A stretch of DNA of 64,000 nt from an uncultured delta proteobacterium. GTDB lineage: Bacteria; Desulfobacterota; Desulfobaccia; Desulfobaccales; 0-14-0-80-60-11. Both the position numbers and the translations under genes were made by a program. The notes beneath the pieces are model-generated. The model did not search any database. It was not told the DNA's origin and saw only the letters and a program-made list of their open reading frames with translations. Shown here piece after piece: positions 1 through 64,000 of this stretch. The stretch covers positions 257,441 to 321,440 of the forward strand of contig CAVYJK010000020.1 in NCBI GenBank assembly GCA_963768765.1. The letters run 5' to 3'. The number at the start of each line of letters is the position of its first letter. Within the stretch, counting starts at the first letter, position 1.

Positions 1-255
1 AAATCTCCCAATAAGGCCCAAATTGCCAGGGCGCTCATCGGGATCCAAATAGTGGTAGGGATGCCGCTATAGATAGCAGATAAGAGAAATGCGGCGAAAA
101 TGCCAACGCCGCCGCCCCTGGGAATCGGATGGGAATGGGAACTGCGGGCGTTGGGGTAGTCTACAAGCCCCAACTTAACGAGCGGAAAGGCTCATGAGCC
201 ATGCCCCTAAAAAGCCTAAAATGCAACTGGAGAGCACTAGTGTTGTTAAAGTCAT
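1..255 (-). CDS. WecA/MraY-family polyprenyl-phosphate HexNAc-1-phosphate transferase, N-terminal part (gene runs off window start); apparent 1-nt frame break near 175-185
   Basis: ATG at 255 gives the TM helix MTLTTLVLSSCILGFLGAWLMSLSAR, then a stop. The adjacent frame continues KLGLVDYPNARSSHSHPIPRGGGVGIFAAFLL, the D-x-P-x-x-R-x-x-H...P-x-GGG signature of this family. Confidence 0.6.
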
Positions 256-415
256 TTTATGGGAGAAGGGCGTGAAAGGATCAGAGGGAAGTCAAGGGAC
301 TGATCGTTGCTTTCACCCGGCCGGGTTGCTTCGTTTGTTTATGATTCCCAGAATATGCCCACCGGAGCCGGTGAGGCCTTTTCATTATGTTTTCCGGAAT
401 CAAGTTGGGGGGGGG

Positions 416-1522
416 TTATCTCCGGGTCGAATCCCAGGTCGTCTGCTGCAGGCCCAGCAAGTTTTTGAAAAAGCCGAACATAATAGCCAGATTAAGCAAG
501 ATAAAGTAGTAGAAGATATAAAGCGCTTTCCAGCGGATCCGGAAGCAACATACCACCGCCACTATCCCATATCCTAGACACTGAGTCACGAAAAGTGGGT
601 GGTACCGCGGGTGGGTCAAAAGCATGGCGTTGCTCAGGAAGGCCACCACGAGAAAGAACGGCCCCAGCCAGCGAAGCACCCGGTGGCTCAGGTAAAAGAA
701 GAAGCGCTTGCCATGGAGGGGGTTAAGCAGGCCCCTAAGATACACCAGGGCCCGAAAATGACCAGCCGCGTCCCTGACATGACGCCGGAATTCCTCGGAG
801 TCGGAGGTAATCTGTAGTTCTTCCGCCACCGCGTCTTCCGCATATACCACCGCGTGGCCCTGCTCAAAGATGCGCATGGAAATGGAAAAATCGTCGTTGA
901 TGGTGGTGGGGGGCAATGGTTCGAACAACTCCCGCCTGAAGAGATAAATGGCGCCATTGGCCCCGATGACTGAACCGAAGAGGCTTTCCCTTTTCTTGAT
1001 AAAGGTTTCGAGGCGCCAGTAAATCCCCTCGCCCGAGGCACCGCCCCCATCCAGCAGCACCAGGCGACCGCATACGACCCCCACCCCTTCCCTCAGGTCC
1101 GCCAACAAGTAGCTCACCGCATCCGGGCGAAACATGCTATTGGCGTCGGTCATCACCACGTAAGGCTGCCAGACCCGCTCCAGGAGGGCATTGATAACGC
1201 GCACTTTGCCCCCCCGGGGGAATTCGAAGACCTTGACCCGGTTATCACGCATGGTCCGATGAATCTCGGCCATGGTGTTGTCGCTGCATCCATCCAGGCC
1301 CAGGTACAATTCGACTTCGGGATAATCCAGAAGATAGAAGTTCTCAATCTTGCGGGCGATGACCTTCTCCTCGTTATAGACCGAACAGACTATTGCCACC
1401 GGTCCCAGCGCTCCGGGCCTCCGCTTTTTTGGTTTCCTGGGGCGAAGGAGATACAGCACCCCGGGATAAATAAGATGGGGATAAAGGATGAGTAGGACGG
1501 AAACCCAGAAGACCAGTTCCAT
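416..1522 (-). CDS. Membrane-anchored family 2 glycosyltransferase
   Basis: 368-aa ORF with an N-terminal TM segment, a GT-A core (VAIVCSVYNEEKVI, LDGCSDNT, MTDAN) and several C-terminal TM helices. Stop/start is coupled to the next gene at 1522. Confidence 0.8.
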   Translation of the reverse strand: MELVFWVSVLLILYPHLIYPGVLYLLRPRKPKKRRPGALGPVAIVCSVYNEEKVIARKIENFYLLDYPEVELYLGLDGCSDNTMAEIHRTMRDNRVKVFEFPRGGKVRVINALLERVWQPYVVMTDANSMFRPDAVSYLLADLREGVGVVCGRLVLLDGGGASGEGIYWRLETFIKKRESLFGSVIGANGAIYLFRRELFEPLPPTTINDDFSISMRIFEQGHAVVYAEDAVAEELQITSDSEEFRRHVRDAAGHFRALVYLRGLLNPLHGKRFFFYLSHRVLRWLGPFFLVVAFLSNAMLLTHPRYHPLFVTQCLGYGIVAVVCCFRIRWKALYIFYYFILLNLAIMFGFFKNLLGLQQTTWDSTRR

Positions 1523-2988
1523 TATGAGTGTTTCCTGAACAGGTGGTTTGCCAGCGTAGTTGCGGCCTTGACGGTGCGGCCGATTTCTCCGGGATTTCGC
1601 AGTATGTCTAGTGCCTTATGAGCCAGGTACCAGGACCGCAGGTAAAAGCGGCGTCGGGCATAATCGCAGAAGTCGACCAAATCACGGGCAGACAACTTTT
1701 CGGTATGAAGAACGCAGTTATGCATCCCATCGGGGGTAAGCCATTGGCCAAAACTGGTTGCCCGGATGTAGCCTTTCTCTTTGGCCCAGAGATAGGCCTC
1801 GGTCCCGGGATAAACCATGAGCGGGAAAAACTGGGCCGTGTCCAAAGGAAGGCGCAGGGCAAAGTCCAGGGTGCGGCGTAACGTCTGCCGGTCCTCGCCC
1901 CGGTTGCCCATCATAAAACACCCGTGCACTCGGAGTTCGGCCTTTTGGGCATTGCGGGCAAATTCGTCCGACTGCTCCAGAGTTATGCCCTTATTAATAT
2001 TATCCAGCACTGTCTGGTCTCCGCTTTCGAATCCTGCCACCAGGAGGCGGCAGCCGGCCTGCTTCATCTTCACCATGATTTCATAACGGAGATTGACCCT
2101 GGCTTCACAGGTCCAGGTAACGATCAGGCCCCGGCGGATGATCTCGTCGCAGATCCGGGCGACGAAATCCTGGTCGGCCGTGAAGTTGTCGTCATCTATC
2201 AAGATCTCCCGGACTTCCGGAAACTCACGGCGGATATAGTCGAGCTCGTCCACGAAATGGGATACCGAGCGGTGCCGGTAGCGCCGTCCGAACATGACCT
2301 GGGGATACACGCAGTAGAAGCAACGATTCGGGCATCCCCGGCCCGCAAAGATGGAGATCACCGGATTGCGGCAGTGGGCGTAAAAGTAGTTGGCAATATT
2401 AAGATGCTTTTGGTAAACGCTGCTCACAAAAGGGAGCTCGTCGAGATCTTCGGCGAAGGGTCGGTCCGGGTTGTGCACGATGCGGCTTTTGCGGCGGAAG
2501 CTGATGCCGGTGACGTCCTCCCAGCGCTCCGGCTCCTCGGCCAGTTCGCACAAGGTCCAGTCGTACTCCCTCCTCGCTACCACGTCCACCGCGAGGCTGA
2601 GGGCCAGGGTTTCATCCGGCAGGGCGCTGGGATGGGTGCCCACCAGCACGGCCAGAGGCGGTACGGGAAACCAGGACTTGACCGTCTCCAGGGCCCGAAC
2701 GTCTGAATCGATGCTGGGGGTGGAGGTGTCGCAGACCACCATGCCGGGTGCAAACTCCTCAATTCTTTGACGCCGGTCCCCCAGTTCTTGGCCCTCGGCC
2801 GGAAAGTCGAGGAACATCACCTCGTGTCCCCGCTTCTCCAACAATCCCGCGGCATGCGCCAGCCACAGGGGATAATAAATGGTGCCGCTCTTGGTCACCG
2901 CCGGGCTGCGGGAACTGCGGGAGAACTTGGGCAGAAAGGGGGGATTAATCAGAAGGACTTTCATGGTGTATCTATTTACCAGTGACAA
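1522..2988 (-). CDS. B12-binding domain radical SAM enzyme (1 of 3)
   Basis: 488-aa ORF. It has an N-terminal Rossmann-like B12-binding region (KVLLINPP...) and a CxxxCxxC cluster motif, GRGCPNRCFYCVYP. Confidence 0.85.
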   Translation of the reverse strand: MSLVNRYTMKVLLINPPFLPKFSRSSRSPAVTKSGTIYYPLWLAHAAGLLEKRGHEVMFLDFPAEGQELGDRRQRIEEFAPGMVVCDTSTPSIDSDVRALETVKSWFPVPPLAVLVGTHPSALPDETLALSLAVDVVARREYDWTLCELAEEPERWEDVTGISFRRKSRIVHNPDRPFAEDLDELPFVSSVYQKHLNIANYFYAHCRNPVISIFAGRGCPNRCFYCVYPQVMFGRRYRHRSVSHFVDELDYIRREFPEVREILIDDDNFTADQDFVARICDEIIRRGLIVTWTCEARVNLRYEIMVKMKQAGCRLLVAGFESGDQTVLDNINKGITLEQSDEFARNAQKAELRVHGCFMMGNRGEDRQTLRRTLDFALRLPLDTAQFFPLMVYPGTEAYLWAKEKGYIRATSFGQWLTPDGMHNCVLHTEKLSARDLVDFCDYARRRFYLRSWYLAHKALDILRNPGEIGRTVKAATTLANHLFRKHS

Positions 2989-4021: not shown

Positions 4022-4245
4022 TGTCAGCTTAGGCAGCGGTTCCTCTAGTTTAAGGGAATCTCTGATTTGTCATTGGGAAGAAACACCTTTGGGTTAAGCA
4101 CGATAGGGTTGGCCGTGGGAGGTGCGGCAATGGCTTTGATGGAAATATCTTGACTTAACCGGCAGAGATCTCTTGGAAACTGAGAAAGCAGGGCGTCCGT
4201 CATGATAGAGATCGGCCTATGCGGTCGAAAACCAGAGAAAAATAA

Positions 4246-6233: not shown

Positions 6234-6355
6234 TTCGGACTCTTTTTAAATTTTTCCTACCTTATTCAAGACAACCTTTTATCAACGGCAACATCTACCC
6301 AACGGCTGGAGGGCGTGAGATTTTACTTCCGGTGGGAATTTGGCGCCAATTTGCT

Positions 6356-7753
6356 TTATCCGGCTTTTTGTTGGGACAGCAGCCGTTTCAGCCGCAGCCA
6401 ATGGGGGATAAGGCTATGGCCGAAAGGCAAGGCCTTGATCGTATCCTTTGCCAGCTCGAAAAAGGCCTTTGTCGGAGAGGTCCTGATGAAAACCAGGAAC
6501 TTGAACAAGCGTTGGGCCAGGCGTATCTGCCAGGCGGGAAAGCCGGGCAGGCGCAGCACGCTGCCGGCGAAGTAGCTGGCCGCGGCGCCGTTTTGGCGCA
6601 CCAGGCCGCGCTCATAGCAGGAGTCCCCCAGCGCCGTTCCCCGAAACGGGTAATAGACCGTCATCTGCACCTGGTCCGGACGGATACGGCGGTTGAGGGC
6701 CACGGTCTTCAGGTAGTCGGGCCAGCGTTCGCCGGGAACCCCCACCATGTTAAACGTGGATAGGCGCAGGCCCGCGGCCCGGATGGTATCTGCAGCGCGA
6801 ATAATGGCCTCATCGCTCATGCCCCGGTTGAGCACGGTGCGGCGCAGCTCTTCATTGCCGCTCTCACACCCCAAGGCCACGGTATCGCAGCCGCCGTCCT
6901 TGAGGAGACGGCAGCCCTCCGGCGTCACAGTTTCCGGCCGGGTGTTGCAGTGGAAGGGCCGCCCCACTGAACTGCGGTAGCCTTTCAGGAATGTGGCCAG
7001 CCACCGGGGATTCTTGGTAAAGGTGTCATCATCGAAATTCAGATATGGGGGCTGAAACAGGGAAACATATTGCACCGCGCGCCGTACCGCCCGCTCGGGG
7101 GAAAGAAAGCGTAACTTGACCGTTCCCAGGCGCTTCTTGTAAGCGGCATTGCAGCAGTAGCTGCAGTTATACGGGCATCCCCGGGAAAACATCAGGCCGG
7201 GATAGTTCAGCACCACTTCCCGAGGATAGAGGTCATAGGCCGGCTCGGCCAGGGCGTCCAGATCGGCGGGGATAGGCGCCGCCCCCGCCGGGACGATTCC
7301 TCCCGAGGGTGAGCGCGTCCAGACGCCGGGCAGACCGGCAAACGACTCCCGGTGCGCAGCGCGCCTGGAAAGGGCGGCGATGACCCCCTCTCCTTCCCCC
7401 ACTACGAACCCATCGAAGGCATCGGTACCGGCCAAGGCTTCGGGGAAAAGGGAACAGTGGGGACCCCCGCCCACCACGGGAATGGCGCAACGTTGCCGCA
7501 AAGCCCGGGCCGCGGCCATCGCAAACTCCCATTGGTTGGAATACACGGAGATGCCCGCCAGGATATAGTTTTCCTCCGCGGCTTTTTCAAGCCACTGCCC
7601 GGAATGGTAAGAGCCGGAATCAAGCACCACAATATCCGGGGTGAACCCCGCGGCGCGCAGCGTCCCGGCCAGGGAGGCCAGGCCATGATTGACGTAGACT
7701 ACGGTATCCTGCATCGCCACGTTAAGCTGTAGCAGAAGCACCCTGGCGGTCAT
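6356..7753 (-). CDS. B12-binding domain radical SAM enzyme (2 of 3)
   Basis: Motif SRGCPYNCSYCCN with an N-terminal B12-like domain. The likely start is M52 of the tracked ORF (ATG at 7753), forming an ATGA overlap with the upstream GT2 stop at 7750. Confidence 0.85.
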   Translation of the reverse strand: MTARVLLLQLNVAMQDTVVYVNHGLASLAGTLRAAGFTPDIVVLDSGSYHSGQWLEKAAEENYILAGISVYSNQWEFAMAAARALRQRCAIPVVGGGPHCSLFPEALAGTDAFDGFVVGEGEGVIAALSRRAAHRESFAGLPGVWTRSPSGGIVPAGAAPIPADLDALAEPAYDLYPREVVLNYPGLMFSRGCPYNCSYCCNAAYKKRLGTVKLRFLSPERAVRRAVQYVSLFQPPYLNFDDDTFTKNPRWLATFLKGYRSSVGRPFHCNTRPETVTPEGCRLLKDGGCDTVALGCESGNEELRRTVLNRGMSDEAIIRAADTIRAAGLRLSTFNMVGVPGERWPDYLKTVALNRRIRPDQVQMTVYYPFRGTALGDSCYERGLVRQNGAAASYFAGSVLRLPGFPAWQIRLAQRLFKFLVFIRTSPTKAFFELAKDTIKALPFGHSLIPHWLRLKRLLSQQKAG

Positions 7754-8697
7754 CGCACCCACCTCCAGGGCACGAGGCTGCGCAACAGATGCCATAGTCT
7801 CTTCGGGCTGGGGGAGATAGCCAGGGAGCGCCAGAACAACCGCCGCGCCTCTGCCTTTCTTCCGGCGAGAAGAAGATTGCGCCCCTGCCCGGAGCAGACC
7901 AGACACTCCAGAAGCCGCTGGTGCCGTGGCGTGGTCAAAGAGGCGGCAATCCGGTCATAGGTTTCCTGCGACCATCTAATCTCTTGTCCTTTGCGGCGCA
8001 ACTTTCCCACCTCTCGCGCTACCATCCCCATAAGAATCTGTTGATGTGATTTTGCAACAGATATACTTTCCGGGTTGATGCGGTAACGGTATAGCGGCAG
8101 GTCGAGGTTGTCCACCATATGGCGCTCCGAAATGCGCAGAAAGAGATCGTAATCTTCGGCATAACGGTATTCCTCGTAATACATCCCTTCTATTTTAAAG
8201 ATTTCAGAACGGAACATAACCGAACCGTGCGCAAACTGGTTGTTGCGCCGCATTCTGCGTCTGAGGGTCTCCGGCTGCGTCAAGATGCGATGACGGTGTA
8301 ATACTTTTCCCTGTGGATCGATGAGGAGGCAGTCGGTACCCAGGAGCTTCAGTTCGGGATGGGCAAAGAAACAGGATACCTGTTGTTCGAAGCGCTCCGG
8401 TTCGGAGATATCATCCGAGTCTTGCCGGGCAAGGAAAACGCCGCGTGCCAGGCGGATGAGGCGGTTGAGTGACACGGTCAGGCCGGCGTTTTCCTGGCGG
8501 ATAAACCGGATGCGCCCATCGCGCCGCGCCACCGCGTCGAGGGCGGCAGCCGTCTCCGGTCCCGAACCATCATCCATTATCAGGAACTCAAAGTTGTCAT
8601 AAGTCTGGCGAAGAATGCTCTCCACCGCGAGATCGAGGTATTCCGGGCGTTCGTTATAGACCGGCATGATCACCGAAACCAGGGGGCGGGAACTCAT
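7750..8697 (-). CDS. Family 2 glycosyltransferase
   Basis: VSVIMPVYNERPEYLDLAVESILRQTYDNFEFLIMDDGS and QDSDDIS motifs. Confidence 0.85.
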   Translation of the reverse strand: MSSRPLVSVIMPVYNERPEYLDLAVESILRQTYDNFEFLIMDDGSGPETAAALDAVARRDGRIRFIRQENAGLTVSLNRLIRLARGVFLARQDSDDISEPERFEQQVSCFFAHPELKLLGTDCLLIDPQGKVLHRHRILTQPETLRRRMRRNNQFAHGSVMFRSEIFKIEGMYYEEYRYAEDYDLFLRISERHMVDNLDLPLYRYRINPESISVAKSHQQILMGMVAREVGKLRRKGQEIRWSQETYDRIAASLTTPRHQRLLECLVCSGQGRNLLLAGRKAEARRLFWRSLAISPSPKRLWHLLRSLVPWRWVR

Positions 8698-14062: not shown

Positions 14063-15162
14063 TTATTTCATGAAGACTTCTTTAAGACGCTGAGCGAGTA
14101 TGCTGGTAGTGAACCTGGAGTTTACCTGGGATTGGGCGCGACGGCCCAATTCGTCACAAAACCCTGGATTGTCCCACAGTTCGCCGATAGCTCCGGAGAG
14201 GGCGGCCACATCACCTACCGGCACAAAGCGGCAATGCTCTCCGTTGACCAATCCATATCCCGCGCCATTTGGCCCTACGGCGCGGGTGCGGCTGAGCACC
14301 GCGGCCTTGCCCATGGCCATAACATCAAACGCGGTGGTGGTGGCAAAGGAATACGGCGAATCCTCCACGGGCAGGACGACGAAACGGCAGGCCGCGTAAT
14401 GGGAGACTACTTCCTGAATGGGCAATTCATAGAGCACGTGGACATTGACGGGCAGCCTGACATTCGCAAAGCGCCCTCTGGAGGTAATGACCCGGAAAGG
14501 AATATTTGGCAGTGACTCTGCTGCCTGGAACAAGGCATCGAAGTCTCGGCACCGGTCACGGCCGACTGATAGCACCACATCTTCCTTAGCGTCCGGTTGC
14601 CTGGTGAGACACCCGAGCATAAAATGCGGTGTCCACGCCCGACGGGAATCCACCCCACCTTTTCCGGCGGAACCCCAAAATGGTCAATAATTTCTTGCCG
14701 TTCCCCCCAACCATAGGCCACGATATGGTCGATGGCGGACAGGGACCAACGGTGCAGTCGAAACGCCCAGTTCCATCCCTGACTGGCCAGCGATTGCGTG
14801 AGTCCCTGAGAGGCCATGATCAAGCGCCCTTGCCAGCAACCGAGGCGTTTAAGAAAGGCCAATGGCAGTCCGGTGCTATCGGCGGTGGCAAAGACACAAT
14901 CGTAGTCCCGCAGCCTGGTCAATGACTGGAGAGCTTGACCGATATTCCATCCATGGGCGGTCCGCCGAATCACTAGACTCGCCAGCGTTTGGGCTTCTCG
15001 ATACGGTGGGCGCAGTTTGCGGTCCTCATCAAAGAACTCTGCCTGGTGGCCGAGACCTGCCATATGGTTCAACCCATACAGCAGGGTATCGGGCGCCTCT
15101 CCTTGTCCAACTTCATCTTGAACGCTGCTTCGCTCCGTAGGGTAAAGGTATAGAATTCGCAT
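14063..15162 (-). CDS. GT-B (family 4) glycosyltransferase with one apparent frame break near 14.62-14.65 kb
   Basis: ORF 14407-15162 gives a plausible N-terminal half up to ...PPEKVGWIPVG. ORF 14063-14653 in another frame gives the C-terminal half (AFDVMAMGKAAVLSRTRAVGPNGAGYGLVNGEH). Together they make one ~365-aa GT4. Confidence 0.7.
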
Positions 15163-17660: not shown

Positions 17661-18230
17661 TTATTCCTTTCGGGCGACACACAGCCGCATCTGTGCCAGG
17701 TAGGCATAGAGCGGAGTGGCGTCCAGCGCCAGTCGCACGGCAACCGCGGCCCGGGGAAATGAGCCAAACAACCGGCTTAGTGCCGGCCAGCGCAGCTTCA
17801 GGCCGAACTCGGAGCCGTACCCATATTGTTCTTTTACGGCAAAACCGTTTTTATTTAGAAGGGCCTCAAACTCCCTCGGGGGAAAAGCATATTGGTAAAA
17901 CGAGAAATCTTCGGTCAGTGGTTGCAGCCCGACTTCACGTAGGCGAGACCCACGCAGTCATAGCCCCGGACCCGTAAGGAAACCACGTATTGGGCTTTGC
18001 CACAACTGGCTTCCAGTATTTTGCCATCGCGGGGAAGCCGAAGCCGCATAATCTGGGCGAGCCTGCCACGGCCGATATACCCTTAGAGGTAAGGAGTGTA
18101 AAACTGCGGACTATCGCAGGCGCGCCAGTGCTCTTCCCCAAAGGTGCGGCCCATACTACGCCGATAATATACCAGCCTGGGACTTTCAAAACGCACCACT
18201 ACAGCGCTTCTTCCGCTCATAGTGAAATCC
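17661..18230 (-). pseudogene. Decayed class I methyltransferase remnant (frame breaks plus internal deletion)
   Basis: Three frames must be read in succession. First MSGRSAVVVRFESPRLVYYRRSMGRTFGEEHW..., then ...PRDGKILEASCGKAQYVVSLRVRGYDCVGL (motif I/post-I), then TEDFSFYQYAFPPREFEALLNKNGFAVKE... (MT C-terminus). Motifs II-III between them are absent. Confidence 0.5.
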
Positions 18231-18287
18231 TTGGCATCCCGTTCTCCGGAAAAACCCCGCGTCTTCTTGACCTCACTCAAATTGTCT

Positions 18288-23828: not shown

Positions 23829-24452
23829 AGACTTTCAGTCCGTGCAGACTCCGTCCCCATTTGGTGCGGTCATCGTCGAGGAAACCCACCACGTGGTAGT
23901 TGAGGTGCGGGATTGTCCAGAATTTCCCGGAACATCTTTTCCCCGGCTCCACCGGCACCAATGATAAGTAATGATTTTTCCTTCTGGCCGGCGTTTGCTG
24001 CGGCTTAGAGAGATAAGAGGGCCAGAGCTGCTGAATTTCGGAATGGTGCTCGTATAGAATGAGGCGAATGCCCAGGCGCAGCCCACCACTCAGTAATAAG
24101 GTTAGCATGCCGTCCAGCAAGAAAAACCGAACGGGGGACGCCTTGAAAGCCATTAATATAGAAAGTAGCGATAATATAAAACAGCATGGAAACTATAGCT
24201 GGCCTGCACCAGCCGCCACAAATCATTCAGGCTGGTGTAGCGCCACATGCCCCGGTACAGACCGAAGAGAAAGAAGATTAAGATCTTGCCGGGTAAGAGA
24301 AACGGCAACAGCCTCAATATCTGGGTGCGGTAGAAAGGCTCCAGGATAAAGTCAAAGCGCAGCAGATAGGCGCCGACAAAGGCCATAACGAAAATCACGA
24401 GGTCGGCTGCCAGAACGATGTAAAATCGGCGATTGTGAAATTGGGCGAGCAT
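23779..24452 (-). CDS. N-terminal membrane and first Rossmann region of the same CapD/WbpM-like gene, broken by multiple frame changes
   Basis: Conserved-looking pieces lie in alternating frames. They are RFYIVLAADLVIFVMAFVGAYLLRF, FQGVPRSVFL, LLDGMLTLLLSGGLRLGIRL, KSLLIIGAGGAGEKMFREILDNP and HLNYHVVGFLDDDRTKWGRSLHGLKVFG, followed by IIKREKIDEVLIAIPSA in the catalytic ORF. Confidence 0.65.
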
Positions 24453-26949: not shown

Positions 26950-28117
26950 TCAAAAAGCTGCCATGCTATAGGCACCGCTGGGGATGGGCAACAGGGTCCT
27001 GATAAGATAAAAGGTCTTTTTTATGGTGCTTTCGTTGACCACCACCACGTCGCTGTCTTTCAACGGCAGATCCGGATCATTTCTGGCAATGATGCTGCTC
27101 AGATTGGTATTGATGCTGATGGGTTTGCCCTGGTCATCAAAGCGCATGATGGTGATGTTATTGGTCCCTAACATGGGGTCGACCCCTCCGGCCATGGCCA
27201 CGGCCTGGGACACGGTCAGGTTTTCCTTAACCGCAATATTCCCCGGCTTTCTCACCCCCCCCAGGACATAGGCGGTGCCGGCGAAGGGCACATGGATCAC
27301 ATCGCCGTTGCGCACCGTGATGTTCAACTGCGGTTCTTGTCCGCTTACCAGGCGGCGGAGGTCGATCACCATGGTTTCGGTTTTCGGGGCAAAAGGCTGA
27401 GCGGCAGTCCCGGCCTTCATGGTCTTGGCCAGGTCCGGGGCGTTTTGATGCCGGATGACATTGACGACATCACCGGCTTGGGCCCCACCGCCGGTTGGTG
27501 ACCTGGTTCGAAAACCCGCCGGCCAGGGACAACACTTCCAGCAGGGTGCGGGGGCCGATGATTTCGTAAGACCCGGGTTTGGCCACCGCGCCGGTGACCG
27601 CCACCCGCTGATGGCGGAATTCCTTGACCTCCACCGTAATCTGCGGATTCACCAGGAACCGGGCGTCATATAGTTCCACCAGCCGTTTTTCGATCTCCTG
27701 GGGAGTCATACCGGCCACTTTGACCACCCCCACCAGCGGCATGGTGATCTCTCCCTGGCCGTTGACCCGGAGCTCCCGGTTGAGATTGTCCTGGCCATAG
27801 ATTTCGATGACCAACTGATCTTCCGGCCCCACCTTATAGTCTTTATAGCTGACCAGCGAAGCCTGGGTGGCCTGGACCATCAACTGGTTCTGTAAGTCCT
27901 TGTTGGGGTTGGGCGCCTGCCTCTGCGACAACGCCTGGGCCGTGAGGACTTGCTGGGAGGGACCGCCGCAGCCCCCTAACAGACCCAACCCTATAAATAT
28001 TAGGGCAACCGAGCTCCATCTCGGGCTACCGGCAGGCTGTTTGGCTGCAAGATTATTCCTTTCCGTGGCCTTTTTGCCAGGAGGAGCGGTGAACGCTTCA
28101 AGGATCCTGTTAAGCAT
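26950..28117 (-). CDS. Wza-like outer-membrane polysaccharide export lipoprotein, apparent frame break near 27.48 kb
   Basis: Lipobox-like LGLLGGCGG. Poly_export motif YKVGPEDQLVIEIYGQDNLNRELRVNGQGEITMPLVGVVKVAGMTPQEIE. SLBB-like repeats continue in ORF 26950-27420 (GDVIHVPFAG...). Confidence 0.75.
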
Positions 28118-45637: not shown

Positions 45638-47920
45638 ATGGGTATGCTGAGGAAGGTCATCTCGATAAGGAAGGTAGGCCGCTTCCTGAGATATTCCGCT
45701 ACCGGAGACGTTGAGTTTAAGCGCTATAACCTAGTGTTTGCCGAGAACGGGCGGGGCAAGACAACCCTCTGCGCAATTCTCCGTTCCCTCCAGGCCGGGG
45801 ACACCGCTCATGTAATTGGCCGCACTACGCTTGGAAGTCCGGGCGCGCCGGAGATTAGGATTCTCCTTGATGACGGACCTGCAGTCCTCAGCGCAGGGGC
45901 ATGGAGCACCACAGTCCCAAACCTTGCTATCTTCGATTCAACATTTGTTTCTGAGAACATTTACTCTGGCGATGTGGTTGACCTCAGCCATAAACGCAGT
46001 CTCTACGGGGTTATCGTGGGAGCGCATGGCGTGGCCCTTGCGCGCCAGATCGAAGGATACGACGCTGCAAGTCGGGAAAAGAGTACCGAGATAAGAGAAA
46101 AACGTGCGGAGGTTCAGGCCCTGGTGCCGCAAGGTTTGGCCGTCGAGGCGTTCCTGCCCCTCCAGGAAGACTGGGCTATAGATGCTAAGATCGCCGAGAA
46201 GGTAAAGGAGCTCAAAGCCGTACAGCAGGCAGAGGAGATTAGGACTCGCCCCGCCCTTTCAGAGCTGAACTTACCAAGATTTTGGATTTCATGCGAAAAA
46301 TTGCTCGGCAAGAGCATCGAAGGCATTGCGAAGGATGCAGAACGCCGCATAAACATCCAGATTGAAGAGCACGCCATGCATGAGCGTGGCGAGCCTTGGT
46401 TGTTCGAAGGCTTGGGCTACATACGTAACAATGAGTGCCCTTTTTGCGGCCAATCTATCAATGGTGTTGCCCTGATTGGTGCTTATAGAGACTATTTCAG
46501 TGAAGCTTACGACGCCTTGCGGGCTGAGATTACGACGATGCACCAGCAAATCGCCGATGCCTTTGGCGATCGGGTGATTGCGTCGATTGATAGAATTATA
46601 GACCAGAATAAAGCGGGCGTCGAATTTTGGTCAAGGTTTTGCACAATCACACCTCCCGTTTTGGACGTCGAAGTGTCGGGGACCTTGTTCAACCTCCGGA
46701 ATGCCGCATTACCTCTCCTCGAACGCAAGGCCGCTACGCCGCTTGAGCACGTGTCTGTAGATGCATCATTCACCGGCGCTCTTGATGCTTTTATGTCGGC
46801 ACGCAGAAGTGCTGAAACTTACAACCAGGCCGTGCGGGCGGCAAATGGCGTTATTGCTCAAAAGAAGGCTGCCACCGGTACCGTTGACATCAGAGTCGTT
46901 CAGAGCGCCCTCACCCTCCTTCAGGCGATAAAGAAGCGACACGAGCCAGAGGGCAAGGAAGCGTGTAAAAAATACATGGACGCGATTACAGAAAAAAAGA
47001 CCATCGAAGACAAGAAGACGAGGGTCAAAGTGAGGTTGGACGAGCACACGCGTGAGGTAATCGGCCACTATGAGAACACCATCAATGATCTACTCGAAGA
47101 CTTCCACGCAGGATTCCGGATTACTGGAACCGATCATGGTTATCCTGGAGGCGTTGCCAGCACTAGCTATCAAATCCTCATCAATGAAACGCCCGTAGAA
47201 TTAGGTGACCCCAACAGTCCCCTCACTATCCCGAGCTTCAAGAACACACTCAGCTCTGGCGACAAGAGCACGCTTGCACTTGCTTTCTTCCTATCTCAAA
47301 TAGAGCACGACCCTGCGAAGGCCAGCAAGATTGTCATTTTCGACGATCCGTTCAGTAGCCAAGATAGCTTTCGAAAGGATTGTACTGTTCAAAAGATCAA
47401 GAAATGTGGTGATGAATGTCACCAGGTCATCGTATTGTCACACGATCAGAGCTTCCTTAAGCGCATATGGGACCGTCTCGCCATACAAGCCGGAGACCGA
47501 AAATGTCTTCAACTAATGCGTGTCGGTTTACGCGACACGAAAATCTGTGAATGGGACATTGAGGAGGCGACGCAGTCTCCTTTCGCTGCAGACCGGAAAT
47601 CGCTGGCCGCCTACTACATTAGGGGCGAAGGTTCTCCCAGAGATATAGTGGTCAAGATCAGGCCAGTTTTAGAGACTTACTGTAGGAACCTCTATCCGGG
47701 CGATTTCGGTGAAGATGCTCTTGGCACTATTATCGGAAAGATTCGGGCCAACGGCCCCGTCCACCAGCTCTTTCCTTTGTTAGAAAAAGTGGAAGCACTT
47801 AACGAGTATGCGCGTCGTTACCACCACGGAGAGAATCCAAACGCCGCCACAGAACCTATTGACGAAACCGAACTTCATGGTTTCGTGAAAAAGACCTTAT
47901 CCATTATTGGATGTTGCTAA
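45638..47920 (+). CDS. AAA_13-type ABC/Rad50-like ATPase with a CxxC hook and an RloC/PrrC-like C-terminal tail
   Basis: Walker A FAENGRGKTT. Helical insert with ECPFCGQ (C267/C270, DNA ~46436-46447). Signature LSSGDKSTLALAFFL, Walker B KIVIFDDPFSSQD, and VIVLSHD. The C-terminal ~150 aa carry KIRPVLETY (R-x3-E), with His at PVHQ and RRYHHGEN. Confidence 0.7.
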   Translation: MGMLRKVISIRKVGRFLRYSATGDVEFKRYNLVFAENGRGKTTLCAILRSLQAGDTAHVIGRTTLGSPGAPEIRILLDDGPAVLSAGAWSTTVPNLAIFDSTFVSENIYSGDVVDLSHKRSLYGVIVGAHGVALARQIEGYDAASREKSTEIREKRAEVQALVPQGLAVEAFLPLQEDWAIDAKIAEKVKELKAVQQAEEIRTRPALSELNLPRFWISCEKLLGKSIEGIAKDAERRINIQIEEHAMHERGEPWLFEGLGYIRNNECPFCGQSINGVALIGAYRDYFSEAYDALRAEITTMHQQIADAFGDRVIASIDRIIDQNKAGVEFWSRFCTITPPVLDVEVSGTLFNLRNAALPLLERKAATPLEHVSVDASFTGALDAFMSARRSAETYNQAVRAANGVIAQKKAATGTVDIRVVQSALTLLQAIKKRHEPEGKEACKKYMDAITEKKTIEDKKTRVKVRLDEHTREVIGHYENTINDLLEDFHAGFRITGTDHGYPGGVASTSYQILINETPVELGDPNSPLTIPSFKNTLSSGDKSTLALAFFLSQIEHDPAKASKIVIFDDPFSSQDSFRKDCTVQKIKKCGDECHQVIVLSHDQSFLKRIWDRLAIQAGDRKCLQLMRVGLRDTKICEWDIEEATQSPFAADRKSLAAYYIRGEGSPRDIVVKIRPVLETYCRNLYPGDFGEDALGTIIGKIRANGPVHQLFPLLEKVEALNEYARRYHHGENPNAATEPIDETELHGFVKKTLSIIGCC

Positions 47921-51008: not shown

Positions 51009-52021
51009 TTATTGGACCACCGGAAACTTGCGCCGTCCGGCCTGACTCTGCCAGGCGGTGCGGGCGTCAGGGACCGGGAACTTCCGCCGAAGGTCAAGGG
51101 GCGGGATCTCCTGGTACTCCACCTGGACGATGAACTGCTTCACGTACAGTCCCGGGTCGAACTGCCGGTATTCCACCTGGCCGATAATCTGGGGGACCTT
51201 GATAAGCGGTGGAATCTCTGATATTCCGCCTGGCCGATGACCTGGGAAACCTCGATAAGCGGCGGAGCTTCCCATTCCGCCTGGGCTACTGCCTGGAAAA
51301 CCTTTAGCTTTGCGGGAAGAGGGAAAACACCATTTCTGATCGCATCAATTTCTGTATCCGGAAGGATGTCATTGAAAATCACCATCTCGTCCAATTTGCC
51401 GTCCAGGTAATTGCCTGGATTGGCCAAGGCACCGATGGTAGTGTCTGCTGCTCCCACACGAAGCTGGTTGGAGGGAGTATTGGAGTAATTCGCCACTGTA
51501 CCAGCAGTCGCATCATGGAGCCTGACCTGGCGAACCCTATTTACACCGTCAATAACCACTGCCAGGTGGTACCAGCGTCCAGCCTGGACAGTGCAAGCAT
51601 CCCAGAACTCACCACCGGAGGCGCTGTAGCCCCAGTTGACTCTCAAATACCCGCCAGTAAAGCCGATCTCGATAGTAAGGTCTGTCTGCCAAAGCCACTT
51701 GCTGTAAATATTGGCCCATTGGGAGGCACCCGGTACTGTTTCCAACTTAAACCAACAGCATAAAGTAAATTTTTTAGTTGCATCGCCGGACTTAAGCGGA
51801 TAGCCCGCATCAAGATTACCATCAGCGATAGGAAAATATTGACTGGAGATCAGCTTCAAAATCACGCAGGCCGCTCCTTCTCGGTAATCACCAGTGTCAG
51901 CGGTAGGCGAATTGGCAGAGGCGTGAGGGTATTGACCACCCTTGGAATCTGCGGTTAAAGCACCGCTCTCGAAGCGCCAGAGGGCCTTGCACCGAGGATC
52001 GGTGGAAAAATCGTTGGCCAT
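51009..52021 (-). CDS. LamG/concanavalin-like tail fibre protein with a C-terminal 17-aa tandem-repeat region; frame break inside the repeats (~51.21 kb)
   Basis: CKALWRFESG...LDGKLDEMVIFNDIL is typical of Laminin_G_3 phage proteins. The C-terminus continues from ORF 51140-52021 into ORF 51009-51275 through repeats PPLIEVSQVIGQAEYQ / PPLIKVPQIIGQVEYRQ. Confidence 0.65.
51117..51325. repeat. Coding tandem repeat, about 4 units of 54/53/51/~50 bp
   Basis: Unit starts are at 51117 (ACTCCACCTGG), 51171 (ATTCCACCTGG), 51224 (ATTCCGCCTGG) and 51275 (ATTCCGCCTGG). The 53-bp unit coincides with the reading-frame switch. Confidence 0.8.
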
Positions 52022-52025
52022 GATC

Positions 52026-53014
52026 TTAAGCTACCGCCTTCATCCCGATTTGCACGGCGTTGACCTCGTCCTTGGTCCAGGGCTGGCCGGTGGCCGGATT
52101 GGTTTCCCAGAGCTTGGTCAGGGGCTTGGGATTGACCGCGGGCACCGGCACGTTCTCACCGAAGTAATTGGCGCCGCCGCTGCGGCAGGCCAGTTGCAGA
52201 TTCTGGGGCGTGGGCGAGCCTTCCTTGATGGCCCGGGCCGCCACCTGGACACACTTGACGGAGTGGATGGAGCCAACCAGGTCGGTGACCTCGTAGAGGT
52301 CGGTCTTGCCGGTGACATTGGTGGAGACGTAATCCGTGTCGGAGTATGGGATTTCATTCGACGCAGTCCCAGTTCTGCGCCGGCAGAGGGGTCCCATTCG
52401 GTAAGGGCGCCGGGAGCGGAGGGCCGGATGGCCTGGATGCGGGTGTCCCCCGGCCAGGCGGCGTTATCGATGACCACGTTGTCAAACCAGCAGGAGGCAT
52501 AGTAGGTGCCGTCCCCGCCGATCCGAATACCGTCGATGGCGGTGGCGCCGTCGGTGGTGTCGCCGCTGAAGTTGATGTCCAGGACGCCGCCCACCCGAAC
52601 CTGGAAGACCCCGGCGGTGTCATGGGGCTTGTAATGGACTTCGATGAGGATGGGGGTACCCACGTTGACGGCAATGGTGCCGGTGGCCAGGAGGGTGCCG
52701 GAACCGGTGCCCCGGCGGACCTCCAGGAGGCCGGTGGTGGGGTTGCGCCGGAGGCGGGCCAATTGGGTCGCGCCGTTGAAGAAGTAGCACATGCTGCTGG
52801 CATAGGAGGCGGAGGACCCCCGATAGCGGAACGCCAGGTAGTATTCCGGGGCCGCCGGCACATACTTGTGGGCGTAATAATCCCCGAAGGCGTCACAACT
52901 CAGGCAGTACGTGCCATCCATACCGGCGATACCGCTGACGATCCAGGCCCCTACCACCAGGTCCCAGAGATCGGTCTTGCCCGATTCAAAGCCGTCGATA
53001 AATACCCGGGCCAT
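52026..53014 (-). CDS. Jelly-roll/LamG-like tail protein; two closely spaced frame breaks (~52.36-52.39 kb)
   Basis: The N-terminus MARVFIDGFESGKTDLWD... reads to TEWDPSAGA. It passes briefly through a second frame (QNWDCVE) and then into ORF 52026-52397 (EIPYSDTDYVSTNVTGKTDLYE...PWTKDEVNAVQIG). Confidence 0.6.
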
Positions 53015-54854: not shown

Positions 54855-54855
54855 A

Positions 54856-57430: not shown

Positions 57431-57431
57431 G

Positions 57432-58508: not shown

Positions 58509-59402
58509 TAGACCTTCACCGACACCTTTAAGGTTTCCGCCCCGATTTCTTCCCCCAGGGCCGGCCCGTAGTAAAAATTCTCGGCGTAGCCGTTCTCGTC
58601 CGTTTTGCTGGCCAGTTTAAACAGGGCCCCCTTGGGAGGACTCCCGGTGATCTCCCAGCGTACCCAGTAGCCCGGGCAAACCTCCCCGTGCGCTCCCCTG
58701 AGTCTGGTCTTAACCACGCACCCCTGGAACCTCTGAGCCGCGGGGGTGAAGGTGGGAGCCGTAAGCGTGGCTGGCACCGGGTTCAAGAGATAGATCCTGA
58801 CCAGCTCTGTCAGATTCCACGGTGATTACGAGGTCATGAAGGCAATCATAGGCTGACCAGCGACACGGTCGAACCTTGCTTTTCCATAGGACCTTTTCCC
58901 CCTGGTAGTCCACCAGGGCCACATCTCCGGTATCGTGTTTAAAGGCCATCACCCGGCCACTCCCGGCGTAGGCCAGATTGTGGACATAAAAACCGGTGGA
59001 TACGGCGCCGGCCTGGACTCCGGTGCCCAGGTCATAAATGGTTATAGGGTTCCCAGTCTTGAGAAAAAGCCCGGCCATATCATCCAGGTGGCTGCCGGGA
59101 GCCAGTGGCACCTTCCAGTTCGGGTTTAAAATTAAATCGTTGTGAAATTGTCCGGTGATTTCGTCTGCCGCGTAACACCAGGCATTCACGGCATTCTCAA
59201 AATAGAAATGTCTCCCCAACACCCGATTTCCCAAGGCCAGAGAATAAGGCCAGGCTCCCAGGTAGGCCTCGGAGCCATCTCGAAACACCTTATGCACTTC
59301 GGAATTTATAAAGGCCACCAGAGCATCCCAGGTCTTTATGTAGGCCATAAAGCTGGGGTAATTGCTCAAGGCTTTGGTGCTCGTGTACAGAAGTTCCAGC
59401 AT
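58508..59402 (-). CDS. Phage tail protein with a C-terminal Ig-like domain; apparent frame break near 58.81 kb
   Basis: MLELLYTSTKAL... (ATG at 59402) reads to ...HDLVITV, then continues in ORF 58508-58786 (NLTELVRIYLLNPVPATLTA...TDENGYAENFYYGPALGEEIGAETLKVSVKV). Confidence 0.5.
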
Positions 59403-59668: not shown

Positions 59669-62351
59669 TTAAAAGGCCCTCCCCAGCTGCAACCGGTCGG
59701 CGAAATAACGCTCCATGGCGCCTCGCACGGCTTCCTCGACCCCTTCCAGCGACACCTGGACATTACTGCCGCCGGCGCCGCCGCCCCGGGTGTTGCGTTC
59801 GATGTCCATCAGAATGCCGTTGGTCGAAACCAGGGCGTCCTGGAGACTGACGCCGATCTCGGCGATGGGGATGGAGGTGTCCCCGGCGATCACGCCCCGC
59901 ACCGCCTCATGGGCCGTGACGCCGCTTTGTACTCCGGAGGGTGACCAGGAGCTTTTACTCCCGCCGCTGGTGAGCATCATGCCCACCAGACCGATGACCC
60001 CCATAATGGCGCTGCCCAGGGCGCCGCCGGCCGCCCCGAAGAGTTCCTTGAAGCCGTTCATCAGGAGCTGCTGCAGTTCCTTCAGCCCGGGTTTCATCGC
60101 CTCGGTGAAGACCGCCTTGAAGAGGCCGTTCAAGGTCTTCTTCAGGTCCTGGCCACCTTGCATAATGGCGTCCACCGCGGAACTGAACCATTGGGTGATG
60201 GCGCTGGCCATGCCCGCCGCCTGCTCCGCCTGGGGCCCGGCGTTCCAGGTCTTACGGCCGTAGGCCGCTTCCATGCGGGCCAGCATCTCCGGGGAAACGC
60301 CTTCTTTAATGGCGTCCGCCTTGGCCCGTTGCCATTCCAGATAGAGTTGCTGCAGCTTGGCTTCCTGCTCTTCAATGGGCCCCCAGGCGGCGGACAATTC
60401 CAGGTCCTCCACCTTCTGCTTAAACTGCTTCTGGATCTCGAACTGCTTTTTCAGCTCCTCGGTAACCTTCTTCTCGCCTTCCAGCTTGACCTTGGCCGCC
60501 TCCGCCGCCAGTTGGGCCAGGGCCATGCGGTTCTTGCTGTCTTCCTCCTGGCGGCGGTAGCCGGCCATCTCCGGACTCATCTGTTGCCGGGCCAGGTCGG
60601 CCAGGGCGTCCTCATGGGCCTTGATCTGGGCCTGGCGTTTCTTGTCGATCAGGGCCAGGGCCGCGGCGGTTTCGCCGTCTTCCATCTCCCGCAGCCGGGC
60701 ATAATAGGTCTGGCCGTCAATCAGGCCCTCGGCCAGGTCCTTGTCCATTTCGGCCTTTTTCTTTTCATTGGTGGCCTTGAGCAGGTCGAGGGAACTTTGG
60801 GCGTCCTGGATCTCCGCCTGGCGCAGTTGCTCCCGCACTTTCAGGTATTCGCCGAACAGGTCTTCTTCGGCCCCGGCGGCGCCCTTGCCGCCGCCCTTGC
60901 CGGCCCCGGCCTTGTCGCCGAACATATCTTTCCATTTTGCCATGGCATCCTGGACCTGCTTATCCAGGTTGCCGGTGACGCTGGCCGCGGATAACTGGCT
61001 CTGGAGTTCCTGATATTGTTTTTGCTGTTCGGGAGTGAGGTCTTTGAGTTTTTCTTCAGTGGATTTATGGACGCCACTCCGGGCTTTCTCTCGGGCTTCA
61101 GCCGCCCGATCTTCGGCTGCATTAGCCGCCCGCTGCTCATCAGTTTGAACCCATTCCGCCTCCCCCATGGCCATGGAACGGGCCACGGAGGGCTTCTCCT
61201 GGGCGATCTGGGCAATCTTGTAGGCCCCCAGGGAGGCCAGGGCCACCAGTACCTGGATCAGAATCGCCAGCCACCCGCCGAACGCCGCCTTGACCACCGT
61301 GGCGCCCGTGGCCAGGGCATAGAGGGCGGGGACCGCCCCTCGTATGGCTGTGCCCAGGGCGATGATGTAACCGGATAGCTTGAAAAGGACGGCCAGCTCG
61401 ATAAAGGTCTTGAGGAGGTCACCGTTGGCCACCACCCAGGCAATCACCGCGGCAATCATGCCCCAGACCATGCGGATGAATTCCCCGATGGTCTGCCCCC
61501 ATTGCTGCAACTCAGCGCGGTTCGCAGTCAGCCAGCCCAGCAGATCGCTCCAGACCTTGATCTTCTCGCCGGTGATGGCGGTACAGCAGCGGCTGCATGA
61601 AGTCCCACAAAACCTCTTTGGCCTGCTGGGCCATGAATTTTATCTGGCTCAGTTGCCTGGTATAGGTTCCTGCGGTCGATTCCGAGACTCCTTGCACGGT
61701 TTGGGCATATTTCATGATCAAGTCGATCATGACCTGGGAGCGTTCCTGGGCCGAAAGCTTCAGGTTATCATCCAGGCTCTTACCTTCGGCCAGAACCGAA
61801 TCCTGGAATTCCTTGATGGGAATCTTGGCCTGCCTCAAGGCCCGGGGCATGCCGGTGACGATGGAATCGATCAGGAGATTGAACATCTCCTGGGGAGATT
61901 TGCCGGCCGCCACCGCCAGGTCCCGGGAGGCTTGGGCGATAGGGGCCAGTTGACGGGGGTCCAGGCCGTGGCTGATGAATTGACTGACGGCCTCATAGGC
62001 GTCGCTGGTGGCGACCTTGAATTTTTTCAGGTCATTGGCCAGCAGATCGACGTTGGAGGAGGTGTAACCGAAGTTCTGCCCCACGGCATAGGAGGCGAGC
62101 TTGACGGTTTCGAGTTTGGCCCCGACCTCCGTCACACCCTGAAGCAAGCTCTTAAATTCCATCAGCAGGGCGCCGATGCCCAGGGCCCCCACGGTAAAGG
62201 TGAGGGCTTTTTTTACCTGTGACCCGACGCCTTCCGCCATGGTCTTGAAGGAAGTGAGCTCATTGCGACCGTCCTGCAGCCCCTTTTTCAGGTCGGCTAC
62301 ATCCACCGCAATCTTGCTGAGCAGAACCCCGAGGTCTTCCTGGTCGGCCAT
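59669..62351 (-). CDS. Tail tape measure protein (~894 aa), one apparent frame break near 61.58 kb
   Basis: ORFs 61512-62351 and 59669-61510 join as ...WDFMQPLL/AITGEKIKVWSDLLGWLTANRAELQQWGQTIGEF. There are hydrophobic segments, then a long A/E/K/Q coiled-coil. Position is immediately after the G/GT chaperones. Confidence 0.8.
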
Positions 62352-62353
62352 GG

Positions 62354-63078: not shown

Positions 63079-63096
63079 GATTCCTCCAGGGAGTGA

Positions 63097-63978
63097 TTAC
63101 TGCTCGTTCAGACATTCCCAATAGCCGTAAGGGGCGCCAGGATTGGTGGCGGAGGCGTCCACGACCTCCAGGATCATGGGCAACTCCATCGGCTTCTTAT
63201 CGTCAAAGGTCAGCTTGCCGTTCGGCTTCAGTTGGCACTTGGGAATGATGTAACTCCACTGGAACCCCCGAGAGGGCCGGAATTGCAGGCGAGCCGCACC
63301 CCGTTGATAGTCGGCGCTGGCCACCGGGAACCGCAGGGATTCCCAGGTCGCATAGGTATAGCTGACCTTCACCTCCTCGCCATCAGCCAGGAAGCCCGCG
63401 GCCAAACGGCCGATTCGCCCATTCAGGAGGCTGTTCGCCACCTGGCCCGGATCCACGATGTAATCAGTGTTCTGCACCGCGTTCTGCCGGGCGCAGTTGC
63501 AGGTGGCAACGATGGTCACCGCGGTGCACTTCACCCGCACCCAAAAGAGGGGATCGGAGCTGTTGACGATGGTGGTGGCCCAATCGGCCGGAATGGTCCA
63601 GTTGACCTTGCCGTCGGCATTCAGGCTATGGCCGGCCCCACCGGTCACCAGGGGCTGCCAGGCCGAACCGTCCCAGTATTCCCACGCCACCCCGGTGTAG
63701 TTGCCGTTCACCGCCAGGTCCAGGTAAAGCTCTTTGAATTTGGTGGCCTTGCCGAAATAGACGAAATCGTCGGCCCCAGCCAGGAGATCGAAGGGCGACC
63801 CGGCCAGGCTGTCGGCTTCCGCCGAAAGGTCCGTATAGGCGGCCCCGTCGTAGACCAGACACTTATTCAGGAACTGGCGCACCGTCACCGCCGAGATGCC
63901 ATATTTGCCGATGGAGACAGGCAACTGACCGTTCAGGATAAGTTTCTGATCTACCATTGCGGCACTGCCAGCCCCCAC
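63097..63978 (-). CDS. Major tail (tube) protein candidate
   Basis: 293-aa ORF immediately upstream of the chaperones. The frame stays open to the window end, so the true start (GTG 63978, ATG 63957 or further upstream) is uncertain. The call is by synteny. Confidence 0.5.
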   Translation of the reverse strand: MGAGSAAMVDQKLILNGQLPVSIGKYGISAVTVRQFLNKCLVYDGAAYTDLSAEADSLAGSPFDLLAGADDFVYFGKATKFKELYLDLAVNGNYTGVAWEYWDGSAWQPLVTGGAGHSLNADGKVNWTIPADWATTIVNSSDPLFWVRVKCTAVTIVATCNCARQNAVQNTDYIVDPGQVANSLLNGRIGRLAAGFLADGEEVKVSYTYATWESLRFPVASADYQRGAARLQFRPSRGFQWSYIIPKCQLKPNGKLTFDDKKPMELPMILEVVDASATNPGAPYGYWECLNEQ

Positions 63979-64000
63979 GATTTCAAGGGGGCCTCCCTTG

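Follow-up and report, generated by a model that had tools for sequence, protein, structure and literature searches.

The window, by which we mean the whole 64,000-nt stretch of DNA analyzed here, carries host genes that include the capsule/EPS export genes wza, wzc and capD, a giant HTH_3 gene of 1356 aa, and a prophage with its tail module. Frame switches inside genes were traced with a codon-usage Viterbi frame tracker, and event positions were taken from frameshift-aware protein-to-DNA alignments and from DNA alignments to homologues. In total, 28 frame-breaking events were found in 11 genes, all on the minus strand and in host, island and phage genes alike (Table 1). They comprise 26 insertions of one nucleotide, one insertion of two and one deletion of one. 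Alignments show 24 of the 26 single-base insertions directly. Of the other two, the wecA-like event was read from reading frames only, and that in wza amounts to one extra nucleotide net within a variable loop. The first-pass annotation had counted more than 20 frame changes, a tally slightly low. All of its listed positions were recovered, with the tracker switching frame at essentially each, and a wzc break that it had put at 25.31 kb exists but lies about 100 nt away, at 25407. Events beyond its list were found in the GT4, wzc, capD and giant HTH genes (39790, 26807, 26820 and 14614 had been missed).

Table 1. Frame-breaking events in the window; inserted bases stand in square brackets.
Gene (span)	Position	Strand	Event
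wecA-like, N-terminus	170..195	-	+1-type frame change, break near 180, between first transmembrane helix (MTLTTLVLSSCILGFLGAWLMSLSAR) and LGLVDYPNARSSHSHPIPRGGG motif; from six-frame translation and a weak TIGR02380 wecA match extending across the junction
GT4 glycosyltransferase (14063-15162)	14614	-	second +1, GG->GGG, 26 nt downstream of 14640; basis as for 14640
GT4 glycosyltransferase	14640	-	+1, GG->GGG; frameshift-aware alignment to P0366 (88% aa) and DNA alignment to L108
465-aa conserved gene (19376-20774)	19628	-	+1 between ...AVSLRR and LGELTG...
capD, N-terminus	23803	-	+1, GAA[G]ATC
capD, N-terminus	23911	-	+1
capD, N-terminus	23969	-	+1, ATT[A]CTT
capD, N-terminus	24060	-	+1, position uncertain by ~50 nt
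capD, N-terminus	24121	-	+1
capD, N-terminus	24196	-	+1, GCT[A]TAG
wzc, C-terminus	24711	-	1-nt deletion, the only one; GTCGGC-CAC vs GTCGGCACC
wzc	24795	-	+1
wzc	25407	-	+1 between GNVR domain and kinase domain
wzc	26700	-	+1, ACT[G]CGG
wzc, N-terminus	26807	-	+1, TATC[A]GGGG
wzc, N-terminus	26820	-	+1, ATGATT[G]CGG, 13 nt from 26807
wza	27483..27515 (near 27502)	-	net +1 in length-variable loop
Giant HTH gene (39747-43820)	39790	-	+1, CGG[C]GTG
Giant HTH gene	40380	-	+1, TCG[A]ATG
Giant HTH gene	40774	-	+1, AGC[T]GTA
Giant HTH gene	41868	-	+1 in C run, CCC->CCCC
Giant HTH gene	42496	-	+1, GCC[A]GCG
Giant HTH gene	43319	-	+1, GGGGAA[A]CTCC
LamG-type fibre (~51009-52021)	51216..51218 (51217)	-	+2, CAG[AG]ATT
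phrog_6368-like tail-module gene, 328 aa (52029-53014)	52356	-	+1, GAA[T]GAA
phrog_6368-like tail-module gene	52376	-	+1, CGC[A]GAA, 20 nt upstream of 52356
297-aa tail gene (58511-59402)	58807	-	+1, G between two A, ACA[G]AGC
Tape measure (59672-62351; intact form 892-894 aa)	61584	-	+1, GCT[G]TAC

Among the host genes, the wecA-like gene continues beyond the window's left edge, and the N- and C-terminal Pfam domains of the GT4 are split between different ORFs. The insertion in the 465-aa gene, described in the first-pass annotation as an alpha/alpha toroid, is placed at the same site by all five homologues aligned (P0202-P0206), and no stop is seen with any of them. The location of the capD event at 24060 is uncertain because it falls in a variable linker. 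The wza loop is 13 nt longer than that of one relative (L100) and 2 nt shorter than that of another (L002). A search of species-representative genomes and JGI metagenomes for a wzc of the same species returned none, the best matches having 88% and 91% amino acid identity. In the giant HTH gene, the six insertions were located by DNA alignment to L038 and L039 (92-93% nucleotide identity) and by protein alignment to P0001 and P0003.

The prophage could be compared with close relatives, chiefly those on contigs L103, L107 and L110 (ENA ERZ25039495, ERZ25039480 and ERZ25039502), which are 95.5-97% identical to it. Both insertions in the phrog_6368-like gene are missing from these three and are supported by protein alignment, and the PHROG profile spans two ORFs. 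The insertion in the 297-aa tail gene, likewise backed by protein alignment, does not occur in these three or in L102, and that in the tape measure, aligned to proteins P0121 and P0124, does not occur in any of the five (L102, L103, L107, L109, L110). No match to the tape measure turned up in a scan of viral contigs. A database entry, the 600-aa product P0122 of a 323-kb contig, is 100% identical to the same tape-measure fragment; truncation is thus already present in the gene calls of the source assembly.

The two extra bases in the LamG-type fibre gene sit at a junction of 17-aa tandem repeats. L103 has one repeat unit more and a single frame throughout; L107 also has the extra unit, with a private 1-nt deletion within it. 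We rejected a 49-nt deletion relative to L103 as the cause of the break, since L110 has as many repeats as the window without the 2 nt, which resolves the difference into a natural in-frame 51-nt repeat unit plus two extra bases. Three other candidates were set aside as well. A G at 52025, in the spacer between a stop codon and the next ATG, was not counted because L110 has it too, and we regard it as natural variation. At 60294 and 59061 the window seems to have deletions, but the difference is due to insertions common to L103, L107 and L110; both short-read contigs (L102 and L109) match the window at 60294, and L102 does so at 59061.

When the extra bases were removed, the nine genes that could be fully tested matched intact homologues from end to end, with 73-98% amino acid identity to the closest. 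The earlier remark that there are no further stops held: no premature in-frame nonsense codon was found in about 5,900 codons of the corrected genes, the GT4 merely ending 11 codons before its closest homologue. Large or multi-base deletions are likewise absent from the affected genes, and insertions outnumber deletions by 27 to one (26 +1 and one +2 against a single 1-nt deletion; binomial p = 2e-7). The substitutions private to the window in these genes look selected, with the mark of purifying selection. Of the private codon changes in the phage block, 13 are non-synonymous and 48 synonymous, and 54 of 66 base changes fall at third positions. The giant HTH gene has 27 non-synonymous to 33 synonymous changes, no different from its intact homologues L038 and L039 (Fisher p = 0.31), a test that by itself is compatible with a modest or small neutral fraction. 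The relaxed selection expected of pseudogenes is not evident in either ratio. Nor do the affected genes show the mixed spectrum of decay, with nonsense codons, frameshifts, larger deletions and an excess of deletions. The only gene in the window that looks truly decayed, at 17664-18247, is interrupted by a TAA in frame and has lost about 216 nt internally, a signature that differs from that of the frame-broken genes.

The distribution of the breaks departs from the first-pass picture, in which several sat at short homopolymers. A few do (GG to GGG at 14614 and 14640, CCC to CCCC at 41868), but overall the association does not exceed chance, and we rejected it. Within 3 nt on either side, the mean length of the longest run is 2.45 for the events and 2.63 for randomly chosen positions; the shares with a run of at least four are 14% and 16%, respectively. 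No shared sequence or methylation motif among the 2- to 4-mers at the sites survived multiple-testing correction. CAG/CTG within 2 nt of eight of 25 sites (2.9 expected) is a post hoc idea at a nominal p = 0.006. Clustering, by comparison, is strong, with a variance/mean of 2.30 in 2-kb bins (P = 1.5e-4). A 400-bp part of capD holds six events, and the stretches 0.4-14.6, 27.6-39.7 and 43.4-51.2 kb are free of them. Three pairs of +1 events are less than 30 nt apart (14614/14640, 26807/26820 and 52356/52376) where 0.38 would be expected (P = 0.0055), and they look like bursts of error, not compensation.

Related assemblies have the same kind of event. L103, L107 and L110, which were taken as long-read from their Flye-style 'contig_N' names alone, carry private 1-nt indels and split genes, each at different sites. 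The private 1-nt events of L110 are all insertions and those of L103 mostly deletions; the bias thus varies with the assembly and not with the phage lineage. Six contigs of this phage group in short-read style, among them L102, L104 and L105 from JGI, L106 from Logan, and L109 with a MEGAHIT-style k141 name, have intact genes; the sole private indel of L102 is an in-frame 3 nt. The indels of the window have no counterpart in these short-read-style assemblies of near-identical DNA.

Judged from the sequence comparisons, the frame breaks are very probably errors of the assembled consensus and not mutations in the organism. The first-pass annotation had preferred consensus indel error to real decay, and the 27:1 ratio, the missing nonsense codons, the selected private substitutions and the sister assemblies all favor that choice. 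The window would most likely belong to a long-read MAG of a Desulfobaccales-like bacterium, assembled without accurate-read correction, the platform being our deduction. About 28 places in its consensus would carry one spurious base (in one case two extra, in another one missing), and each error would split a gene that is intact in the cell. We would guess that the clustering reflects locally low coverage or poor read quality, or alternatively the mixing of reads from related strains, paralogues or phages into the consensus. Gene calls broken up by indels in a long-read consensus have ample documentation in the literature. Nanopore bins below about 40x need short-read polishing, and in low-coverage bins indels fragment gene calls (PMC9262707); large soil and sediment MAG sets have been built with Flye and a single Medaka round without short-read polishing (PMC12313526), and their contig names look like the 'contig_N' style of L103, L107 and L110. 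Other observations speak against an artefact. The profile, dominated by insertions and independent of homopolymers, is atypical of nanopore errors in the literature, and several hits in few genes would also be expected from the decay of already dead genes.

Genuine recent pseudogenisation would make the frameshifts real and leave the lineage without working EPS export, giant HTH and prophage tail genes. It has this gathering of hits in its favor, together with the decayed look of the neighboring gene at 17664-18247; and with the closest relatives at 91-97% nucleotide identity, any of the events may in principle be a genuine mutation private to the window. We nevertheless consider it unlikely. 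Bacterial mutation and pseudogene decay are reportedly biased toward deletions (Mira, Ochman and Moran 2001), opposite to what the window shows, and 28 frameshifts came without one nonsense codon or multi-base deletion, among private substitutions that are mainly synonymous and at third positions. The opposite indel biases in closely related prophages of other assemblies moreover fit technical causes rather than the biology of a lineage. Still more improbable is that the extra bases are real products of an insertion-biased, homopolymer-independent frameshift mutagenesis in this lineage and in related prophages such as L110; if that were true, mutagenesis focused on polysaccharide-export, mobile giant HTH and tail genes would amount to locally targeted gene inactivation. 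Programmed recoding, by +1 ribosomal frameshifting or transcriptional slippage, has nothing for it beyond the frame changes themselves and is hardly conceivable. It is effectively refuted by the intact homologues, which for every tested gene run in one continuous frame at these positions; the sites also share no slippery motif, no k-mer surviving correction, and a single gene has up to six of them.

Within the artefact reading, it is possible, if doubtful, that the consensus was polished with mixed reads, from related strains, paralogous EPS loci, prophages and mobile copies of the giant gene, so that spurious insertions arose where the read pile-up was heterogeneous. The affected regions are indeed those with close relatives elsewhere: homologues of the giant gene at 80-93% amino acid identity occur in many phyla, the prophage has several relatives at the identities given above, and the EPS export genes are present twice in some related MAGs (L003 and L007 in one, L006 and L012 in another). 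In alignments read by eye, six of 11 well-resolved insertions adjoin a site that varies among relatives. Against this, no events fall in the highly conserved C-terminus of capD or in the gene at 30.6-31.4 kb, although close relatives of both are numerous; and the notion that a polymorphic site had its two alleles written in series was rejected, as it fits 42496 alone.

Taken at face value, the breaks would deprive the bacterium of capsule/EPS export through wza, wzc and capD, its prophage would be defective, and its copy of the widely shared 1356-aa HTH gene would be dead. Because the breaks look like consensus errors, the broken genes should not be annotated as dead; wza, wzc, capD, the prophage genes and the giant HTH gene are most likely intact. 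The value of the finding is as a warning for annotation, and the affected genes are best annotated with frameshift-aware tools or after polishing. As the errors lie outside homopolymers and are clustered, homopolymer-only correction or an average per-genome error rate would miss or misdescribe them.

Three known systems invite comparison. Phage tail assembly chaperone genes use programmed frameshifts of the G/GT type, and the window likewise has frame changes in a phage tail module, but there the tape measure and other tail genes are interrupted internally, away from the chaperone site, and the breaks are absent from related phages. Pseudogenes accumulate in host-restricted or recently niche-shifted bacteria such as Sodalis and Mycobacterium leprae. 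The resemblance to the window is that numerous genes are broken close together and individual genes are hit repeatedly, but the window genes have no nonsense codons, large deletions, deletion bias or relaxed selection. The textbook error profile of nanopore reads is one of deletions in homopolymers. Compared with long-read consensus errors in general (Nanopore or PacBio CLR), the events of the window differ in being nearly all insertions, strongly clustered and not enriched in homopolymers, but they are alike in that tiny indels split full-length conserved ORFs of all gene classes and are private to one assembly, set against near-identical short-read-style sequence that does not carry them.

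We located the frame breaks with a seven-state Viterbi frame tracker, whose codon-usage model was trained on intact long ORFs from the window, and placed the events against homologues using a frameshift-aware protein-to-DNA aligner and DNA alignments. The gene map was drawn from Pfam, PHROG and PADLOC scans, and the prophage part could be aligned to contigs at 95.5-97% nucleotide identity. In total, 28 events were spread over 11 genes, comprising 26 +1 changes, a single +2 and a single -1, with no premature stop in any affected gene once corrected. The first-pass annotation had reported more than 20 frame changes with no further stops; its positions were essentially reproduced by the tracker, and its count was slightly too low, the giant-gene event at 39790 being absent from its list.

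Features of the window, with frame-breaking events by gene and in-gene frame switches by block
Feature	Position (strand)	Content or change	Basis or comparison	Tracker switches
Polysaccharide locus	0-28 kb (-)	GT2, GT4, GT9 glycosyltransferases, radical-SAM/B12 enzymes, Wzy, methyltransferases, capD-wzc-wza		14621, 19683, 23808-24192, 24802, 25376, 26687, 27481
wecA-like gene	near 180	break	reading frames and weak wecA profile match only	
B12-binding radical-SAM enzymes	1522-2988, 6356-7906, 20771-22216			
GT4		two GG->GGG insertions, spaced 26 nt		
Methyltransferase-like remnant	17664-18247 (-)			
465-aa 'toroid' gene	19628	one insertion		
capD		six +1 within 400 bp of N-terminus; remaining 1.3 kb free of extra bases		
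wzc	26820, 26807, 26700, 25407, 24795; 24711	+1 at the first five; -1 at 24711		
wza		net +1	loop of variable length	
Island	after polysaccharide locus	nucleotidyltransferase, DUF6946 gene, giant HTH_3-domain gene, AAA_13 ATPase		40378, 40725, 41863, 42472, 43314
Nucleotidyltransferase	32839-33483 (-)	ORF intact	PADLOC PDC-M05A (2e-63)	
Giant HTH gene	39747-43820 (-)	+1 at 43319, 42496, 41868, 40774, 40380, 39790	two homologue genes, 92-93% nt identity	
AAA_13 ATPase	45638-47920 (+)	ORF intact	PADLOC PDC-S06 (6e-59)	
Prophage tail and lysis module	48.5-64 kb			51216, 52361, 58814, 61580
LamG fibre	51217	2 extra bases	repeat junction	
328-aa phrog_6368-like gene	52376, 52356	private extra bases	related prophage contigs	
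297-aa tail gene	58807	private extra base	related prophage contigs	
Tape measure	61584	private extra base	related prophage contigs	

Insertions outnumbered deletions 27:1 (binomial p = 2e-7). The link to short homopolymers drawn in the first-pass annotation did not hold, as event sites showed no homopolymer enrichment; the inserted base was often unlike either neighbour (GCC[A]GCG, AGC[T]GTA, ACA[G]AGC, GAA[T]GAA, GCT[A]TAG). The search for a motif context that it had suggested likewise yielded no k-mer enrichment at event sites that survived correction, and CAG/CTG near events at 8 of 25 sites (2.9 expected) is a post hoc count that we do not trust. Events were strongly clustered (variance/mean 2.30 in 2-kb bins, P = 1.5e-4), with the stretches 0.4-14.6 kb, 27.6-39.7 kb and 43.4-51.2 kb event-free. 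Three +1/+1 pairs were separated by no more than 30 nt, where 0.38 such pairs would be expected; because the close pairs are all +1/+1, they do not compensate one another and look like error bursts.

The first-pass annotation had also proposed a comparison with close relatives, and among these some were broken at other sites and others were intact. The prophage copies L103 (contig_102860; ERZ25039495), L107 (contig_44177; ERZ25039480) and L110 (contig_47406; ERZ25039502), from ENA metagenome assemblies whose contigs carry Flye-style names, each had private 1-nt indels of their own, with genes split elsewhere, while the same prophage genes were intact in JGI, Logan and MEGAHIT-style contigs (L102, L104-L106, L109), the sole private indel of L102 being an in-frame 3 nt. 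Private 1-nt events were insertions without exception in L110 (four in its phrog_6368-like gene) and for the most part deletions in L103. That phages so close to the window (95.5-97% identity) show contrary indel biases speaks for assembly, not biology, as the cause. The window's truncated tape-measure product is already on record (P0122, 600 aa, 100% identity, 323-kb contig), so the gene calls of the source assembly were themselves fragmented.

Two further differences were seen among these prophages. Extra base(s) at about 59061 in the 297-aa tail gene, which is split into 123 + 191 aa in both L107 and L110, are common to L103, L107 and L110 and absent from the window and short-read L102; either a true mutation of the lineage or a systematic error tied to sequence context could explain this. 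Towards its C-terminus, the LamG-type fibre (51100-51280, minus strand) contains tandem 17-aa repeats (PPLI[EK]V[SP]Q[VI]IGQ[AV]EY[QR]-like), whose copy number varies by one 51-nt unit among the window, L103, L107 and L110.

Were the events genuine mutations of the lineage, clustering in a few genes would be predicted, and it is this clustering that leaves such a reading a slim chance. Five lines of evidence nevertheless favour an artefact. Bacterial pseudogene decay is biased toward deletions, and its frameshifts come together with nonsense mutations and larger losses, whereas the affected genes hold 28 frameshifts with no nonsense codon or large deletion beside them. Window-private substitutions still look selected: across 1,918 aligned codons of the phage block, 13 were non-synonymous and 48 synonymous, and third positions took 54 of 66 base changes. 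The giant-gene ratio was 27:33, not significantly different from that of intact homologues (Fisher p = 0.31), although this test by itself would accommodate a small neutral fraction. To these are added the non-compensating close pairs, the related prophages broken at other sites with opposite biases, and the fragmented source gene calls. Consensus error, as first proposed, is thus supported apart from its homopolymer link, and the frame breaks are best filed as something other than a real biological feature.

The clustering of such errors may have arisen from locally low coverage or poor read quality, or from a mixed read pile-up. Events occur where close relatives exist elsewhere (giant gene, prophage, EPS export genes): a mobile gene shared at 80-93% amino-acid identity across phyla, several prophages at 95.5-97% nucleotide identity, and EPS export loci with paralogues in related MAGs. 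The hint at a mixed pile-up is weak, since well-conserved segments, the capD C-terminus among them, are free of events. For practical purposes, the EPS export genes, giant HTH gene and prophage tail genes are best regarded as probably intact, and the assembly calls for frameshift-aware annotation or polishing.

The protein encoded by the giant gene is 1356 aa long and carries an HTH_3 domain at its N-terminus; sources name it 'HigA family antitoxin', and it has no Pfam match beyond the HTH domain and no PADLOC match. Intact 1356-aa homologues exist at 80-93% amino-acid identity, and the homologue set (P0001-P0120) spans, by source names, Paenibacillus, Paraburkholderia, Chromatiaceae, Syntrophobacteraceae and Alphaproteobacteria. 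Such identity between phyla implies that this large gene has spread horizontally in recent times. The nucleotidyltransferase and AAA_13 ATPase of the island are candidate defence genes.

Scanning species-representative genomes with a wzc fragment matched exclusively Desulfobaccales/Thermodesulfobacteriota MAGs at no more than 88% amino-acid identity, which makes the host an uncultured Desulfobacca relative with no same-species reference among the genomes scanned. Besides its three radical-SAM enzymes, the polysaccharide locus (0.4-22.2 kb) holds several methyltransferases and a nitroreductase-family gene, a set unusual for an EPS cluster that suggests heavily modified sugars. The GT4 stop codon (14063) falls 11 codons short of the end of the closest homologue, P0366; since the peptide encoded past it is still conserved (SRPATDRSQHVK vs SRPAADRRQHVK), the stop reflects either a nonsense mutation of recent origin or natural variation in C-terminal length.

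Long-read consensus indels are known to break up gene calls, and nanopore bins under about 40x require short-read polishing (PMC9262707). One large soil/sediment MAG set was built with Flye and one Medaka round without short-read polishing (PMC12313526); it includes Desulfobaccales MAGs with 'contig_N' names (L009, L011, L016, L019), though the window need not stem from that project. Unlike the usual nanopore consensus errors, the window events are dominated by insertions and carry no homopolymer signal. They also differ from the methyltransferase-like remnant, which resembles a true pseudogene. Its reading frame is interrupted by a TAA at 18083 (PYL*GYIGRG, against PYLRGY in homologues), and it lacks about 72 internal residues (about 216 nt) relative to homologues in L052 and L053, with a frame change as well. 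Its TAA and internal loss form the pattern of a real pseudogene, from which the 28 events depart.
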